This document shows, one piece after another, positions 29,359 through 35,537 of a stretch of DNA of 64,000 nt. Within the stretch, counting starts at the first letter, position 1, and every line of letters begins with the position of its first letter. The notes under the pieces are model-generated. The model saw only the letters and a list, made by a program, of their open reading frames with translations, made no database searches and was not told the origin of the DNA. The stretch lies in the NCBI RefSeq assembly GCF_024700885.2, contig NZ_CP117016.1, one strand, 5' to 3'. The position numbers were made by a program, and so were the translations under genes. Origin of the DNA: Escherichia coli (GTDB lineage: Bacteria; Pseudomonadota; Gammaproteobacteria; Enterobacterales; Enterobacteriaceae).

Positions 29359-29369
29359 GTGGAGTGGAT

Positions 29370-31769
29370 ATGGCAGCAGTAAAAATCTCAGGTGTGCTGA
29401 AAGATGGTGCGGGAAAACCAATACAGAACTGCACTATTCAACTGAAGGCAAAGCGTAACAGCACCACGGTACTGGTGAACACGGTGGCCTCTGAAAATCC
29501 TGATGAAGCCGGGCGTTACAGCATGGATGTTGAGTATGGCCAGTACAGCGTCACCCTGCTGGTTGAAGGTTTTCCGCCTTCACATGCCGGGACCATTACC
29601 GTCTATGAAGGCTCCAGACCAGGTACGCTGAATGATTTTCTCGGTGCCATGACGGAAGATGATGTCATGCCGGAGGCATTGCGTCGTTTTGAGGCAATGG
29701 TGGAAGAAGTGGCACGCAACGCCGAAGCCGCCTCTCAGAGCGCAGCGGCGGCAAAGAAATCCGAAACTGCAGCGGCATCATCAAAGAACGCGGCGAAAAC
29801 CTCAGAAACGAATGCAGCTAATAGTGCACAGGCGGCAGCGACCTCAAAGACTGCATCGGCAAACTCCGCGACAGCAGCCAAAAAATCAGAAACCAACGCG
29901 AAAAATAGCGAGACAGCCGCAAAGACGAGCGAAACCAACGCAAAGTCCAGCCAGACGGCAGCGAAAACCAGCGAAACGAATGCCAAAGCCAGTGAAACTG
30001 CGGCAAAAAACAGCCAGGTTGCAGCAGCCCAAAGCGAGAGCGCGGCAGCCGGTTCTGCGACTTCAGCAGCTGGATCAGCAACTGCTGCGGCTAACAGCCA
30101 GAAAGCTGCGAAGACGAGTGAAACTAACGCAAAGTCCAGCCAGACGGCAGCGAAGACCAGCGAAACGAATGCCAAAACCAGCGAAACTGCGGCGAAAAAC
30201 AGTCAGGATGCAGCAGCCCAAAGCGAGAGTGCCGCAGCTGGTTCTGCAAGTGCGGCGGCTTCTTCTGCCACTGCATCAGCCAACAGTCAAAAAGCTGCAA
30301 AAACCAGTGAAACCAACGCAAAGGCGAGCGAGACTGCGGCGGCTAACTCGGCGAAAGCATCCGCTGCAAGCCAGACGGCAGCTAAAGCAAGTGAAGATGC
30401 AGCCAGAGAGTACGCAAGCCAGGCTGCGGAGCCGTATAAACAAGTTTTGCAGCCGCTTCCCGATGTGTGGATACCGTTTAACGATTCACTGGATATGATT
30501 ACGGGCTTTTCGCCGTCATATAAAAAGATTGTTATTGGTGATGATGAAATAACGATGCCTGGCGATAAGGTTGTAAAGTTTAAACGCGCATCAACTGCCA
30601 CATATATCAATAAATCAGGCGTATTTAGTGTTGCTAAAATTGATGAGCCACGATTTGAAAAAGAAGGTTTATTGATTGAAGGACAGCGCACTAACTATTT
30701 TGTTAAATCCAATATCCCCGCTGAATGGACGAGTACCAGCAATATCGATAAAACTAATAATGGTGTTGATGAATTTGGTTTTTCATATGCCAAAATGCGA
30801 ACAAAAGATAATATGACAGGACAATCATCTGCACTTAGTCTGCATACATGCAGTGCATCCCGGGGGATTGATGTTAGTGGCGATAATAAGTATTGCACTG
30901 TTTCATGCAGGGTTAAAGCTCCTGATGGTCTTCGTTGTCGTTTGCGTTTTGAAAAATACGATGGGTCGGTTTATACATTTTTAGGAGATGCTTATTTAAC
31001 TTTCGGAACTCTGATAATAGAAAAAACTGGCGGAGCAGCCAATAGAATAGCAGCTACTGCAACTAAAGATCCGGTTACAGGGTGGATTTTCTATGAGGCA
31101 ACTATAGAAGCTGTTGAAGGTGAAACCTTAATTGGCGCAATGATTCAGTATGCGCCGAAAAAAGGTGGTGTAACTGAAGCGGGAGATTATATTTACCTTG
31201 CAACACCACAATTTGAAAACGGCGGATGTGCTTCATCTTTTGTTATTACGACAACTGTACCCGCAACCCGCTCCAGTGATATGGTGACGATCCCAACTGA
31301 AAATAATATCTATAATAGACCGCTTACGTGCCTGGTCGAGGTTAATAGAAATTGGGGCGATATTCCTCCTAATGTAGCACCGCGTATTTTTGATTTTTCT
31401 GGTGTGCCACCTATTGAGTCAATTACATACGCTTTTAACACAACTGAGAAATATTACGGTCAGCTTTATATGCAAACTTATAAAGCGTCGACAAGTACTT
31501 ACGTTTCTAGTGTGTTTGCTGGTCGAACTGATGTTCGAAAATTCATTGGTGGTTTTAATATTTATTCTGATGGTACTAAACGAGTAGTTTCTAACGGTGA
31601 GGCTACTAAAACTATGAAAACGGAGTGGACGGGCGTAAAAACACGGACCTTTATTCGAATTGGAGGTCAAGCCACATCGGGAACTCGTCATCTATTCGGC
31701 CATTTGAGAAATCTTCGTCTCTGGCATAAAGAATTAACTGATGCGCAAATGGGGGAGAGTATTAAATGA
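29370..31769 (+). CDS. Side tail fibre protein with repetitive Ala/Lys/Thr/Ser shaft and low-GC C-terminal domain
   Basis: N-terminal conserved tail-fibre start (AAVKISGVLKDGAGKPIQNCTIQLKA); repeats AAKTSETNAK; C-terminal ~400 aa markedly AT-rich. Confidence 0.7.
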   Translation: MAAVKISGVLKDGAGKPIQNCTIQLKAKRNSTTVLVNTVASENPDEAGRYSMDVEYGQYSVTLLVEGFPPSHAGTITVYEGSRPGTLNDFLGAMTEDDVMPEALRRFEAMVEEVARNAEAASQSAAAAKKSETAAASSKNAAKTSETNAANSAQAAATSKTASANSATAAKKSETNAKNSETAAKTSETNAKSSQTAAKTSETNAKASETAAKNSQVAAAQSESAAAGSATSAAGSATAAANSQKAAKTSETNAKSSQTAAKTSETNAKTSETAAKNSQDAAAQSESAAAGSASAAASSATASANSQKAAKTSETNAKASETAAANSAKASAASQTAAKASEDAAREYASQAAEPYKQVLQPLPDVWIPFNDSLDMITGFSPSYKKIVIGDDEITMPGDKVVKFKRASTATYINKSGVFSVAKIDEPRFEKEGLLIEGQRTNYFVKSNIPAEWTSTSNIDKTNNGVDEFGFSYAKMRTKDNMTGQSSALSLHTCSASRGIDVSGDNKYCTVSCRVKAPDGLRCRLRFEKYDGSVYTFLGDAYLTFGTLIIEKTGGAANRIAATATKDPVTGWIFYEATIEAVEGETLIGAMIQYAPKKGGVTEAGDYIYLATPQFENGGCASSFVITTTVPATRSSDMVTIPTENNIYNRPLTCLVEVNRNWGDIPPNVAPRIFDFSGVPPIESITYAFNTTEKYYGQLYMQTYKASTSTYVSSVFAGRTDVRKFIGGFNIYSDGTKRVVSNGEATKTMKTEWTGVKTRTFIRIGGQATSGTRHLFGHLRNLRLWHKELTDAQMGESIK
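29740..30330. repeat. Coding tandem repeats in tail fibre gene
   Basis: Two imperfect ~200-bp tandem units (about 29920-30110 and 30122-30310) plus shorter ~24-bp sub-repeats encoding AAKTSETNAK. Confidence 0.6.
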
Positions 31770-32047
31770 AAGATTTAACACTCAAATTTGCAGACAGGGC
31801 CGACTTTTCGGCCTTTATGGAGAGTATTGGCTATTATGATGACGAGTCGATGCAGGATGATATTCTTATTGACGTGATAGGTAACGTGTACAAAGAAACC
31901 GGAGAACTGACTGAAGATGGCGAACCGGTATGTGTTAAGGAAGACGGATATTTTGTAAACGTGCGCATCATTAATGATGTGAAAACACCGTCAATATTCG
32001 ATGAATACGTGGTTGCTGTTGAGCATCAACTTCGTGGCTGGATGTGA
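31766..32047 (+). CDS. Hypothetical acidic protein in tail-fibre module
   Basis: 93-aa ORF, start overlaps stf stop, AT-rich. Confidence 0.3.
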   Translation: MKDLTLKFADRADFSAFMESIGYYDDESMQDDILIDVIGNVYKETGELTEDGEPVCVKEDGYFVNVRIINDVKTPSIFDEYVVAVEHQLRGWM

Positions 32048-32056
32048 GGAAGAAAA

Positions 32057-32761
32057 ATGGCTACATCGACAGTAATTCCAGGAGATATCACCACGCTAAA
32101 GGGAGATGTCAGTAAAACTAAGGAAGATATTTCCTCAATTAACGGAAAAGTATCAACGCTTCAGACTGATATGACCAGTGCAAAGCAGGATATCAGCACC
32201 AGATACACAAAAACTGAAGTTGATAATAAGCTGAAAAACAAAGTGGAAGTGAACGATCTGGAAAGTGGTCGTTATGGCGGAGATTTTTATCCACTGACAG
32301 GTCGTGAAGCGTTTTATTTATGGAATTTGGCCACGACTACAGCGGCGGCAAACCTTTATCTTAATCCTGACCCCGCAATTTCGTCTGTGCTGCGGTCAAC
32401 ATCGTCTATCCGCTATAAACATTCAGTAGAGACAATAGATTCAGAGCACGCTGATCTCATTTTCAGGATGCGCCCTGTGTGGTACAGGTCACAATGCGAA
32501 AATGACAGGCGTGACTGGGGATTCTACGGATTGATTGCCGAGGAAGTAGGAGAAATTGCCCCTCAGTTTGTACACTGGCGACCAGCTAACGAAGATGATG
32601 CTCCTGAAGCTATTTCCAGCAATGGCCTTGTTGCCGAAGGTGTAATGTACGAACGTCTGGTTGTTCCACTGATTCACCATATCCAGAAGCTGACTGAAAG
32701 AGTTGATGAACTTGAGTCAGAATTAAAGTTGTTATTAACTTCCCGAAGCGATATCGGATAA
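32057..32761 (+). CDS. Tail-fibre-type protein with S74-like intramolecular chaperone domain
   Basis: N-terminal coiled coil then S74-like segment (SSIRYKHSVETID...MRPVWY...DWGFYGLIAEEVGEIAPQFVH...LVAEGVMYERLVVPLIHHIQKL). Confidence 0.5.
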   Translation: MATSTVIPGDITTLKGDVSKTKEDISSINGKVSTLQTDMTSAKQDISTRYTKTEVDNKLKNKVEVNDLESGRYGGDFYPLTGREAFYLWNLATTTAAANLYLNPDPAISSVLRSTSSIRYKHSVETIDSEHADLIFRMRPVWYRSQCENDRRDWGFYGLIAEEVGEIAPQFVHWRPANEDDAPEAISSNGLVAEGVMYERLVVPLIHHIQKLTERVDELESELKLLLTSRSDIG

Positions 32762-32771
32762 AGGAGGAATA

Positions 32772-33059
32772 ATGGATATAACACCTTTCCTTCATGCACT
32801 TTGTGCTGTGGCTGCGCAGGTACTGGTTGGTCTTTTTACCGGAAACTGGGCTTACGGGGCGATAGCCGGTTGTACGTTCTTCATTGCGCGTGAACACACC
32901 CAGGCAGAATATCGCTGGATCGAAATGTTCGGGCATGGCAAGCGAATGAATATGCCGTGGTGGGGCGGTTTTGATACACGTGCATGGGATGTGGCAAGCC
33001 TGATGGATTTTGCTGTGCCGGTGGTGGCGTGTCTGCTGATCTGGCTGTTGATCCGTTAA
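32772..33059 (+). CDS. Small membrane protein, unknown function
   Basis: 95 aa with 2-3 hydrophobic segments; RBS AAGGAGG. Confidence 0.3.
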   Translation: MDITPFLHALCAVAAQVLVGLFTGNWAYGAIAGCTFFIAREHTQAEYRWIEMFGHGKRMNMPWWGGFDTRAWDVASLMDFAVPVVACLLIWLLIR

Positions 33060-33061
33060 AT

Positions 33062-33110
33062 ATAAAAAGCCGCAGTAACTTGCCATGGCAGGATACTGCG
33101 GCTGGTTTGT
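33062..33110. terminator. Bidirectional terminator between tail-fibre module and RT gene
   Basis: 10-bp stem AGCCGCAGTA/TACTGCGGCT (33068-33103) with A-run before and T-rich run after. Confidence 0.45.
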
Positions 33111-33166: not shown

Positions 33167-34537
33167 CTATGATATTCCTGAGATATCCTCTTCAAGCTCT
33201 TTTACTGATTTCGCAATTTTAAATTTAAACTTCCTCTCTATTTCACTATTGCTAAGTTTTTTTTCCTTCTCTTTACCTATCCACATAGAAACAAGTTCTC
33301 GTTTCTGAGATATATGTAAATTATCAAAGTTAGGTATGTATTTAAAAGTCTCCGCTCTACCTCTGCGGAGTTCATAGAAAGTTTTAATCAAAGACTTTGG
33401 TTTTATTTCTGATGAAAGGCCGAATCGGTGGATAAGATTATTGATAGTATGATTAACAGAGCGAAGTTGAGCTGTTGAGGTTATTTGTGAGAAGTACGAT
33501 ACCCATCCCAATCGTTTACCTTCAAACACACATCCCGTAATTCTGAGATTTAGTTTCCACTGACAATATGCAACAGCTCGTTCTTTATCACGCTTACTTT
33601 TAGCTTGTAGTAGAGCGTGCCTGTATGCAGTAAAAATCCTTGCTAAAGATGACTCAAATCTAAGAATGCTCTCATGTTTTATCAATAATTCTCGATTTTC
33701 TATGTGGTATCCCAAAAAGTTAAAACTTTCATCCAAGCTGCCTACTTTGGATTTTGAGTTCTCTTCATTTAATGGATGTGGGTTTAAATTTAATGATTGA
33801 AGCTTATCAATGATATGAGAAGCTATTTTTGTTGCTTGATATTTTGGTGTTAAAATAAGAATGTCATCAACGTATCGCATGTACCATATGTCATGCATTT
33901 TATTGATTTCATCATCAAAATTAGATAGTGATATTTCAGCTAAAATGTTTGATATCGCTAATCCCTGAGGTACCCCTCTGGTATTATTCGGGATACCTTT
34001 GCTTCCTGTTGTTCCACTTACAGTAGGCACGATTAATGATGATGTTATTAACTGTCTAATTTCTTTTTTTCTAATTTTATTTTTTATTGTATTAATTATC
34101 AATTTATGTTCAATTGAAGGATAGAAACTTTTAAGATCTATTTTTGCATATTCAGCATAAAGACTGCTGTTTAATGCTTCTTTCAATGAGTCAATTACTG
34201 TATGTGGTAGTTTTAATCTGGAGTTAGGATATATTTCCGTAAGGCATTCACAGAGAGTTCTAAGAGTAATTCTGTCCCTAGCAGTTGGTATGGAAATCTG
34301 TCTGGGTGTAGAGTTAGCGCCTTTAGATATTAATTTTTCTTTATATGCTGTAAATTTGTAATTGCCAGAGTTAACCTTTTCAAAAATGAAAGCGATCTCA
34401 TTTTTTATTGTCAAATCAAGTTTTGATGGGCGAATCCGATCTATGCCAATCGCTCCTGATTCTTTGATTTTTTCAGTGTATACTTTTAGAAGGTTTTTTT
34501 TCGAGAATGACTTTTTAAAAATTCTGCTTGCAGTCAT
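33167..34537 (-). CDS. Reverse transcriptase (defence-associated type, unclassified)
   Basis: Ordered RT motifs: RQISIPTARDRITLRTL, KIDLKSFYPSIEH, GVPQGLAISNILAEISLS, YMRYVDDILIL, FNFLGYHI; ~30% GC; alternative TTG start at 34543. Confidence 0.8.
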   Translation of the reverse strand: MTASRIFKKSFSKKNLLKVYTEKIKESGAIGIDRIRPSKLDLTIKNEIAFIFEKVNSGNYKFTAYKEKLISKGANSTPRQISIPTARDRITLRTLCECLTEIYPNSRLKLPHTVIDSLKEALNSSLYAEYAKIDLKSFYPSIEHKLIINTIKNKIRKKEIRQLITSSLIVPTVSGTTGSKGIPNNTRGVPQGLAISNILAEISLSNFDDEINKMHDIWYMRYVDDILILTPKYQATKIASHIIDKLQSLNLNPHPLNEENSKSKVGSLDESFNFLGYHIENRELLIKHESILRFESSLARIFTAYRHALLQAKSKRDKERAVAYCQWKLNLRITGCVFEGKRLGWVSYFSQITSTAQLRSVNHTINNLIHRFGLSSEIKPKSLIKTFYELRRGRAETFKYIPNFDNLHISQKRELVSMWIGKEKEKKLSNSEIERKFKFKIAKSVKELEEDISGIS

Positions 34538-35066
34538 AGTCAATCCAAAGATATATTAATGGGAGTATATAAAGGGCGGCAGTAGTAAATATTCGAAGTA
34601 ATATCCATAAAATAACAATTATTTTTTCTTTTTGTGTGGGGATCCTCGTCGTAAGTCCAACTTGAGTTACCCTTGAAATTTTATCATCTATGTCACGGTG
34701 ATTCTCAACCTCATTGAGCAAATTAAAATATTTTTCTTTCTGTTCAAGAGTTAACTGTTGACTGGTGGTAATGTCAAAATAGAGTCGCTGTAGTGCAATA
34801 TAATTCCTTCTCATGGCTATTGCTCGACCACGAAAATCTAGGTTAGATACGATCAGCGAAATACCCAGTAGGGCCACCGAAAGTATTGCCGCAACGATAT
34901 CTGTGTTATCTCCTAGAACTTTTGGAAATCGCAACGTTACAATTGAAAGTACCGCACTCAATATAGCATACCAAACGAGGATAAATTGAGAGTGCTTTTC
35001 AAGCCATTCTAGTCGATGGTGCGCTTGGATACGGGCTTTATATGTAAACCAAATATTGTCATGCAT
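34515..35066 (-). CDS. Small multi-TM membrane protein, candidate effector partner of RT
   Basis: 183 aa; hydrophobic helices FILVWYAILSAVLSIVTL, IVAAILSVALLGISLIVSNL, IIVILWILLRIFTTAALYILPLIYLWI; 3' end overlaps RT start; RBS AAGGA. Confidence 0.6.
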   Translation of the reverse strand: MHDNIWFTYKARIQAHHRLEWLEKHSQFILVWYAILSAVLSIVTLRFPKVLGDNTDIVAAILSVALLGISLIVSNLDFRGRAIAMRRNYIALQRLYFDITTSQQLTLEQKEKYFNLLNEVENHRDIDDKISRVTQVGLTTRIPTQKEKIIVILWILLRIFTTAALYILPLIYLWIDYDCKQNF

Positions 35067-35288: not shown

Positions 35289-35537
35289 TTAATGAACAAA
35301 CCACTCGTCAGCAGACTCCCAGGTATCTTTCAGAGTTTCCTGAACAAAAGTTTTAGCTGAATCTTTATCGGCGGTGCGCGTAACAGAAAGGCCATCGTTG
35401 CTGGTGGCTTTTACGATCACCTCTACATCGTCATAACGCTTACTGATGCGTCGAGTTAATTCTTCCTTTAACGCATCCACAGCACCGCTTGGCATTTTAG
35501 TCATTTTCTCTTTAGCTATGCAGATCTCAATACGCAT
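35289..35537 (-). CDS. DinI-like protein
   Basis: 82 aa; MRIEI...AKEK...LPAGA-DAL--EL-RRI...[10 protein letters not shown] pattern of the DinI family. Confidence 0.75.

Follow-up and report, generated by a model that had tools for sequence, protein, structure and literature searches.

Cor (T1, phi80, N15 and HK022) and Llp (T5) are exclusion proteins encoded beside receptor-binding genes. Both are outer-membrane lipoproteins that block FhuA, the receptor of the adjacent receptor-binding protein. To our knowledge, exclusion, as by cor and llp, is the sole reason described why small envelope proteins should accompany receptor-binding genes. A second group of superinfection-exclusion proteins, T4 Imm, P22 SieA and HK97 gp15, resides in the inner membrane; these are expressed early or from the prophage, and HK97 gp15 is embedded among tail genes. 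The genes gtrABC, oac and iap follow tailspike genes. The fibre chaperones known to us are soluble. Among late lysis proteins, the Mu gp25 releasin (DUF2730) is a non-holin lysis factor with a single TMD at its N-terminus and an acidic domain of 73 aa in the cytoplasm (PMC9239132).

The gene analysed here lies in a window of 64,000 nucleotides of Escherichia coli chromosomal DNA. From the ORF list and the sequence, it runs from an ATG at 32772 to 33059 on the + strand and comprises 95 codons, exactly as the preliminary description had placed it. The TAA stop of its 5' neighbour is found at 32759-32761, and the gene begins 10 nt past that stop. A Shine-Dalgarno sequence, AGGAGG (32762-32767, +), can be read directly past the TAA and 4 nt 5' of the ATG, in agreement with the strong ribosome-binding site claimed before. 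Phage 21 has the same junction, AAGGAGGAA(T/A)TAATG, ahead of its membrane-protein gene. The ORF was unbroken in 80 of 80 close IMG/VR loci, which had been picked for carrying the gene and include both of the upstream arrangements described below. For 52 distinct alleles (1326 allele pairs), a mean dN of 0.025 was obtained against a dS of 0.144 (dN/dS 0.176). The 95-aa ORF is a genuine, strongly constrained phage gene. An antisense ORF that overlaps it (32610..33086) was rejected as spurious, because the 95-aa gene is intact in all 80 loci, is constrained, matches PHROG 1443 and has many homologs. The 1.5 kb around the gene showed 100% identity to four sequenced strains.

The protein matched the profile of PHROG 1443 ('unknown function') over its full length (E = 1e-57, residues 1-95 on profile positions 1-95 of 97). 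On this match it is assigned to PHROG 1443, which is itself only a label without an assigned function. The ortholog in phage 21, CPT_21_24, is a member of the same PHROG and is annotated as 'putative membrane protein', and some UniProt entries name the family protein Ybl63. No paper on the Ybl63 name or on the PHROG 1443 family was found in the literature searched. At 90% clustering, 461 homologs were retrieved, all of them unnamed or 'hypothetical', and the family profile returned 525 clusters at 50% identity from 1.84 billion representatives searched. Among the matches listed, family members are stand-alone proteins of 66-147 aa. Of 5426 complete E. coli genomes searched, 1899 carry the gene; the 3880 places found in them, 57 of which are on plasmids, are all annotated as 'hypothetical protein', and a carrying genome has a median of 2 copies and a maximum of 7. 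Beyond E. coli, members were found in phages of enterobacteria, Aeromonas, Comamonas and Halomonas and in many metagenomic phages. Identity among the copies of E. coli, Aeromonas and Comamonas is about 60%, although the fibres encoded upstream of them are unrelated.

Searches for a described domain gave no answer. The 95-aa protein had zero matches in Pfam and NCBIfam and none among the defence families of the PADLOC models. When 40 diverse members were run against Pfam, nothing was obtained but weak sub-threshold matches to the PhoR membrane hairpin. The family profile had no match among all PDB sequences, and fold searches yielded nothing specific or informative. Altogether, no defence, exclusion, immunity, toxin or holin family was matched in Pfam, NCBIfam, PHROGs or PADLOC. 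The superinfection-exclusion or toxin-like role suggested in the preliminary description is plausible in kind, but gained no support from these searches. The category, a small phage membrane accessory gene, is ordinary; what is striking is the breadth, the conservation and the total lack of characterisation. About a third of complete E. coli genomes carry the gene, often in several copies, and yet no domain, structure or literature came to light for it. Identification of its presumed host target could reveal a new exclusion mechanism or a new mechanism of lysis control. In addition, therapeutic phages are given new targets by the exchange of receptor-binding modules, with which this gene travels.

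Two or three hydrophobic helices had been proposed for the protein. In agreement with this, AlphaFold2, supplied with a 25-sequence alignment, modelled three helices with a mean pLDDT of 93.1 and a pTM of 0.79, at aa 4-23, 26-53 and 74-94. The model describes a three-hydrophobic-helix inner-membrane protein. Helix 1 (32781..32840, +) is hydrophobic and carries the invariant His8. Helix 2 (32847..32930, +) is hydrophobic to about aa 39 and continues as an amphipathic extension, which contains the signature REHTQAEYR (aa 40-48; 32889..32915, +); here R40, E41 and Q44 are invariant, and A45 and E46 nearly so. The loop that follows (aa 54-73; 32931..32990, +) conforms to GKRxNMPWWGGFDxRxW, with W72 invariant. 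It includes the Trp-rich stretch MPWWGGFDTRAW (aa 61-72), which had been pointed out earlier and proved to be among the better-conserved parts of the PHROG 1443 family. Helix 3 (32991..33053, +) holds the conserved D79 and P83 and is followed by a single residue. Over 40 members, down to 30% identity, H8, R40, E41, Q44 and W72 were found to be invariant and G29, E46, D79 and P83 nearly invariant. An alignment of 169 sequences (80% identity filter) gave the signature H8...G29...R40-E41-x-x-Q44-A45-E46-Y47-R48...R58...P62...W72...D79...P83.

Inside each helix, the conserved residues are spaced about every four positions. Because of this recurrence, they are expected to face one another, and the conserved residues of the three helices may meet at one membrane interface. 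The mean number of Lys and Arg residues in 191 members was 0.43 at the N-terminus, 0.07 in the turn between helices 1 and 2, 5.8 in residues 40-75 and 0.48 in the C-terminal tail. Following the positive-inside rule, this distribution leads to a predicted topology with the N-terminus and the loop inside and the C-terminus outside. The prediction is uncertain; the TMHMM call of the phage 21 annotators for CPT_21_24 was '2 TMDs, N-in, C-in', unlike the N-in/C-out arrangement predicted here. A tethered-dimer AlphaFold run reached a pTM of only 0.50 and gave no sign of self-association. In three family members (P0140, P0194 and P0253, from loci L008-L010), the loop was seen to contain an insertion of about 45 aa after WIE.FGKP, for example 'FQTPADYAEWHYKTYGEAEGRELPGSWEAYYALYPDLQAEYARL'. 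This insertion may resemble the HY..G..EGR / Y..NPDL motif of some bacterial polysaccharide-synthesis enzymes.

The family gene is the terminal cistron of a tail-fibre or tailspike module in very different Proteobacteria phages, among them siphoviruses, myoviruses and podoviruses. In the window, the order is Stf (801 aa), a 93-aa phrog_1361 protein, a 234-aa fibre with an S74 chaperone and finally the 95-aa gene, so that its placement at the end of the tail-fibre module in the preliminary description holds. In phage 21, Lambda_ev203 and an SSU5-like phage-plasmid, Stf is followed by a 92-aa protein and then by the family member. Both arrangements coexist in E. coli prophages, and the one containing the S74 gene was about twice as common in the 80 close IMG/VR loci. 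In the P22-like phage JEP4, the member stands between the tailspike gene, whose stop it overlaps, and the integrase gene; in the P22-like phage 611R6 it comes after an O-acetylase (OafA) and a 38-codon fibre remnant, by the integrase. The epsilon15-like (Uetakevirus) phage phiv142-3 has it between a tail fibre and two holin-family genes, while in the P2-like Halomonas phage phiHAP-1 it stands between a fibre-assembly gene and the sheath gene. In a Comamonas prophage, the member follows gpJ. A metagenomic podovirus encodes an S74 pectate-lyase tailspike, the stop of which is overlapped by a 34%-identical member.

In order to cover more remote relatives, 80 loci in 17 clusters were taken from IMG/VR with a distant sub-alignment, and the ORF was intact in all 80. 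From the 17 distant clusters, 20 same-strand proteins of at least 300 aa, encoded within three genes 5' of the member, were examined. Their commonest matches were tail fibre, tailspike or tail PHROGs, and several were of pectate-lyase, S74 or lectin types according to Pfam. A same-strand upstream gene overlapped the member or ended at most 14 nt away in 9 of 13 distant clusters. In one of the metagenomic loci (L166), a 90-aa partner (phrog_18574) is also kept upstream of the member.

The resemblance to Cor and Llp lies in this position. The 95-aa protein is likewise a small accessory envelope protein encoded at or beside the end of the host-recognition genes, it occurs in temperate and in virulent phages, and it is linked to the module. 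It differs from both in being a predicted three-helix integral membrane protein that has no sequence similarity to them and accompanies many unrelated fibre types. When its N-terminus, MDITPFLHALC, was inspected for a lipobox, no basic n-region was seen, and Leu was found at -1 before Cys11. Like Imm, SieA and gp15, it is a small phage protein of the inner membrane, as predicted, without an enzymatic domain; those three are expressed early or from the prophage, whereas a crude scan showed no promoter of its own for the 95-aa gene. All sequence-based tests of membership in exclusion and lysis families failed, and the protein belongs to none of those families.

A simple, crude sigma-70 scan gave no promoter-like site on the + strand from 31500 to 32772, and the same scan found none upstream of the gene in the P22-like phages 611R6 and JEP4. 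This result, the gap of 10 nt and the overlaps often seen in relatives all suggest late production of the protein. The parsimonious reading is that the gene would be co-transcribed, and often translationally coupled, with the late tail-fibre genes. Since no own promoter was found, expression in the lysogen, where exclusion usually acts, is unsupported.

Such tight synteny and coupling with receptor-binding genes and with small chaperone-like partners could also be read as the mark of a morphogenesis factor, that is, a membrane-anchored helper that folds or attaches the fibre encoded upstream. The fate of the two genes in other phages argues against it. In the virulent siphovirus 6947 (L005 3965-4159), an S74 fibre is followed by a decayed copy with an in-frame stop, of which residues 41-93 are recognisable. 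In the Salmonella Kuttervirus KFSST3 (L004 3980-4156), 41 codons of the membrane gene remain behind the gene for a tailspike-adjacent protein. These decayed copies look like footprints of receptor-binding modules that were imported from temperate phages. As both virulent phages keep the fibre while the membrane gene has decayed, the gene is dispensable for fibre function; conversely, as 611R6 retains the gene beside a mere fibre remnant, the gene is selectable without the fibre. Moreover, one and the same conserved protein is found with receptor-binding proteins of unrelated structure, and the solubility of the known fibre chaperones also counts against a membrane-anchored helper. A role in fibre morphogenesis is considered very improbable.

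In the P2-like, P22-like and epsilon15-like relatives, the gene fills slots that are classic for lysogenic-conversion or exclusion genes. To this extent the prophage-cargo position claimed in the preliminary description was borne out. The late-operon anatomy and the near-constant presence with the fibre module fit that claim poorly, and the cargo or moron picture is weakened because no promoter was found, the gene is separated from its neighbour by 10 nt or overlaps it in relatives, and it is nearly always present. Two features of a moron were nevertheless observed, namely an own downstream hairpin (33068-33103) and an odd base composition: the GC content of the gene is 0.52, against 0.40-0.47 in the upstream distal fibre module and 0.30-0.34 in the AT-rich cargo downstream. 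Sporadic presence, a third feature, was not seen, as the gene was intact in all of the 80 close loci (chosen as carriers) and is spread over the 3880 places in 1899 E. coli genomes.

Expressed from the prophage, a strict lysogenic-conversion moron would change the assembly of surface polysaccharide (O-antigen or capsule), as gtrABC, oac and iap do. Besides the hairpin and the GC content, which is unlike that of either flank, the tailspike-to-integrase slot in the P22-like phages (beside the OafA O-acetylase in 611R6) and the tailspike-to-lysis slot in the epsilon15-like phage speak for it. Several of the scanned upstream receptor-binding proteins are also directed to glycans (pectate-lyase beta-helix spikes, S74 fibres and a lectin-domain Stf). 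Against these points stand the lack of a detected promoter and the apparent translational coupling to late genes. The gene is also intact in T4-like, apparently virulent Aeromonas phages and in other large phages, including a large phage contig in which it adjoins rIIB. With 95 aa, the protein is far below the size of known glycan-modifying enzymes, and the family is too uniform over hosts with unrelated glycans for a serotype-specific role. Strict conversion is therefore regarded as unlikely.

Lysis genes provided a further context, which the preliminary description had not noticed. Six relatives were found in or beside lysis cassettes (L177, L104, L018, L007, L008-10 and phiv142-3). In L177, a gene for a 2-TM protein, the member and a GH19 endolysin gene (E = 9e-78) follow one another with 1-nt and overlapping junctions. 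In L104, the member is followed by an XhlA-like protein, a phrog_3427 holin and, as read from the sequence, a putative M15-type endolysin, and in L018 by a GTA_holin_3TM. In the Comamonas locus L007, two multi-TM proteins, a 183-aa protein and nested ORFs come after the member; the last three were read as a putative SLT-like endolysin and Rz/Rz1, and they had no PHROG or Pfam family match. L008-10 shows the order endolysin, 2-TM protein and member with the loop insertion, and in phiv142-3 the member is followed by Phage_holin_8, Phage_holin_3_7 and an endolysin. Tail genes lie just upstream in three of these six cases, and there the adjacency may reflect a mere tail-then-lysis layout. The adjacency in L177 and L008-10 is not explicable in this way. 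Each of the six has another holin candidate besides the member, so that the latter is not the main holin. The lysis-cassette context is rarer, and synteny with the fibre is far more general.

These relatives raise the possibility that the protein is a lysis accessory, a late inner-membrane modulator of holin timing or of endolysin release, in the manner of an antiholin or a releasin; in lambdoid phages, the gene would then have been carried off from the lysis cassette with the fibre module. Late co-expression fits this reading. So does the build of the protein, which recalls class I holins (lambda S105, P2 Y) and antiholins (P2 LysA) of about 95-110 aa: it is small and probably late, has three AF2 helices (pLDDT 93) of hydrophobic character, and in some relatives is encoded near an endolysin or a holin. 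Unlike class I holins, it has a strongly conserved polar loop and is devoid of a charged cytoplasmic C-terminal tail; one residue lies past helix 3, and the C-tail of the family has a mean length of 5 aa with 0.48 K+R. No holin or antiholin family of Pfam or PHROG was matched by the query or by 40 diverse members. The Mu releasin offers a precedent for non-holin membrane lysis factors (PMC9239132). It shares with the 95-aa protein the non-holin, membrane-anchored and, for the latter probably, late character, and its functional part is on the cytoplasmic face, which is where the conserved loop is predicted. The three helices and the basic/aromatic loop set the 95-aa protein apart from it, and neither the query nor the 40 members matched DUF2730. 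A weak sub-threshold DUF2730 match (E = 0.0025) was noted in one locus (L131 5296-5547).

The location in other phages is unfavourable to a lysis accessory. The gene is far from the lysis genes in the window and in phage 21, P22-like, P2-like and SSU5-like phages, the integrase adjoins it in P22-like phages, and proximity to an endolysin was found in some distant relatives only. The window prophage already appears to have a complete S21-type set 23 kb upstream (8184-9423, +), read from the sequence as an S21-like pinholin, a 165-aa SAR-type endolysin and Rz with embedded Rz1. The separate holin candidates in the six relatives count in the same direction. Finally, the lysis cassette follows the tail genes in many phages, and much of the adjacency could be secondary to fibre synteny. 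We regard a lysis accessory as a rather doubtful, though not a negligible, explanation, and as the main rival to the exclusion-type role discussed next.

The facts taken together fit an accessory inner-membrane protein of lytic growth that acts on a conserved host component. For such a protein, an exclusion-type or envelope-modifying accessory role is suggested by the position and by analogy, and it is advanced here tentatively, as the best guess but a possible rather than a probable function. A considerable share of the probability falls to functions other than those considered here. The reciprocal pattern of decay and retention and the conversion-slot positions fit a role of the exclusion type. 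The gene would be transcribed with the fibre genes from the late operon, and during lytic growth the protein would build up in the producing cell's membrane; expression in the lysogen, if it occurs, would come from read-through or from an undetected promoter. Judging from the Lys/Arg distribution, the N-terminus and the REHxQAE...W loop would be cytoplasmic and the C-terminus periplasmic, and the invariant residues H8, R40, E41, Q44, W72, D79 and P83 would form one polar site at the cytoplasmic membrane interface. A conserved inner-membrane host target is implied by the fixed place behind host-recognition genes combined with a degree of conservation that the fibres never show. By binding this component, the protein would protect the infected or lysogenic cell against attack by further phages. 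Its action would take place at the inner membrane and, unlike that of cor and llp, would not be matched to the specificity of the fibre.

Some observations are difficult to reconcile with an exclusion-type role. A protein that masks a receptor or blocks DNA entry in the periplasm would not be expected to have its conserved loop on the cytoplasmic face, as the predicted topology has it. The near-constant presence with the fibre module and the number of copies, up to 7 in one genome, are more like a core gene of the module than like defence cargo. The lysis-adjacent relatives also point away from exclusion. One more specific idea, a universal 'receptor-supply switch', would, if true, account for the linkage to fibres and to lysis cassettes alike. 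In this case, the ligand of the conserved cytoplasmic-face site of the late protein (H8, R40, E41, Q44, W72 and D79) would be either the undecaprenyl-phosphate carrier or a conserved initiating transferase, and the binding would shut down lipid-linked glycan assembly. The assembly of O-antigen, capsule and peptidoglycan precursors would halt in the producing cell; progeny with glycan-specific fibres would escape trapping by nascent polymer or debris, and the wall would cease to be synthesised shortly before lysis. This idea is considered very unlikely.

The other genes of the module were also inspected. Its head is the 801-aa side tail fibre gene (Stf, 29364..31769, +), identified by RefSeq annotation and by the phage 21 counterpart. 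The identical Stf region is labelled 'prophage tail fiber N-terminal domain-containing protein' in RefSeq, and the phage 21 counterpart has phage_tail_N and Laminin_G_3 domains. The interior of the gene (29600-30400, +) consists of Ala/Ser/Thr/Lys-rich repeats (AAKTSETNAK...-type units) with an extreme AT skew (up to 0.70), and these repeats also yield several long spurious ORFs in other frames. The next gene (31766..32047, +) encodes the 93-aa acidic protein (phrog_1361/18574), a recurrent partner 5' of the membrane gene. This protein has no Pfam domain, and all its retrievable homologs are at least 86% identical; its position suggests a fibre chaperone. A protein of this type recurs even in a distant metagenomic phage (L166 4732-5001).

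The preceding cistron (32057..32761, +) encodes the 234-aa protein of tail-fibre type, whose C-terminal domain is a Peptidase_S74 intramolecular chaperone. This mini-fibre is composed of a fibre N-terminus of about 32 aa and the last 230 residues of far longer fibres, including the S74 chaperone, and its C-terminal part matches phrog_3299 at profile positions 1147-1383. The gene was present in about two thirds of the close E. coli loci and is missing from the phage 21 arrangement. The mini-fibre could be a short accessory fibre or a relic of recombination.

Downstream, the G+C-rich hairpin at 33068-33103 lies between the convergent stops at 33059 and 33167. The calculated folding energy was -28.2 kcal/mol for the + strand (z = -5.1) and -21.9 kcal/mol for the - strand (z = -3.6), and a clean U-run was found on the - strand, that is, the RT side, only. 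As an intrinsic terminator, the hairpin looks well suited to the RT operon (- strand) and less so to the + strand. A bidirectional terminator shared with the RT operon had been claimed; the hairpin between the convergent stops is indeed there, whereas the clean U-run serves one direction. A simple terminator scan missed it because its loop exceeds 8 nt.

The convergent gene (33167..34543, -) encodes a reverse transcriptase of 458 aa (PADLOC RT_UG17, E = 2e-158), and a 183-aa protein (SLATT_5 / RTasSLATT, E = 8e-57) is encoded by a gene that overlaps it, the two forming a two-gene cargo (33167-35066, -). The pair is a defence-associated RT system and stands in an AT-rich island (GC 0.30-0.34), with the tail module on one side and prfC on the other. 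Phage 21 and Lambda_ev203 carry different cargo just downstream on the opposite strand, namely the iron/manganese transporter sitABCD (L001 4386-7835 and L016 5365-8814). As sitABCD there replaces the RT system, the region behind the 95-aa gene looks like a hotspot of cargo exchange. In many IMG/VR entries (L023, L028, L030, L031, L036 and others), the predicted viral region stops 3-9 nt past the stop codon of the gene. Boundary callers thus evidently let the phage end with the 95-aa gene and leave out the variable cargo beyond it.

Three minor observations were made elsewhere in the prophage. The S21-like pinholin of the window has possible dual starts. A 350-aa ORF ahead of the lysis cassette (7127-8179) reads as a putative DNA methyltransferase. 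An 82-aa ORF (35289-35537, -), located just before prfC (35730 onward), appears DinI-family-like and may mark the end of the prophage.
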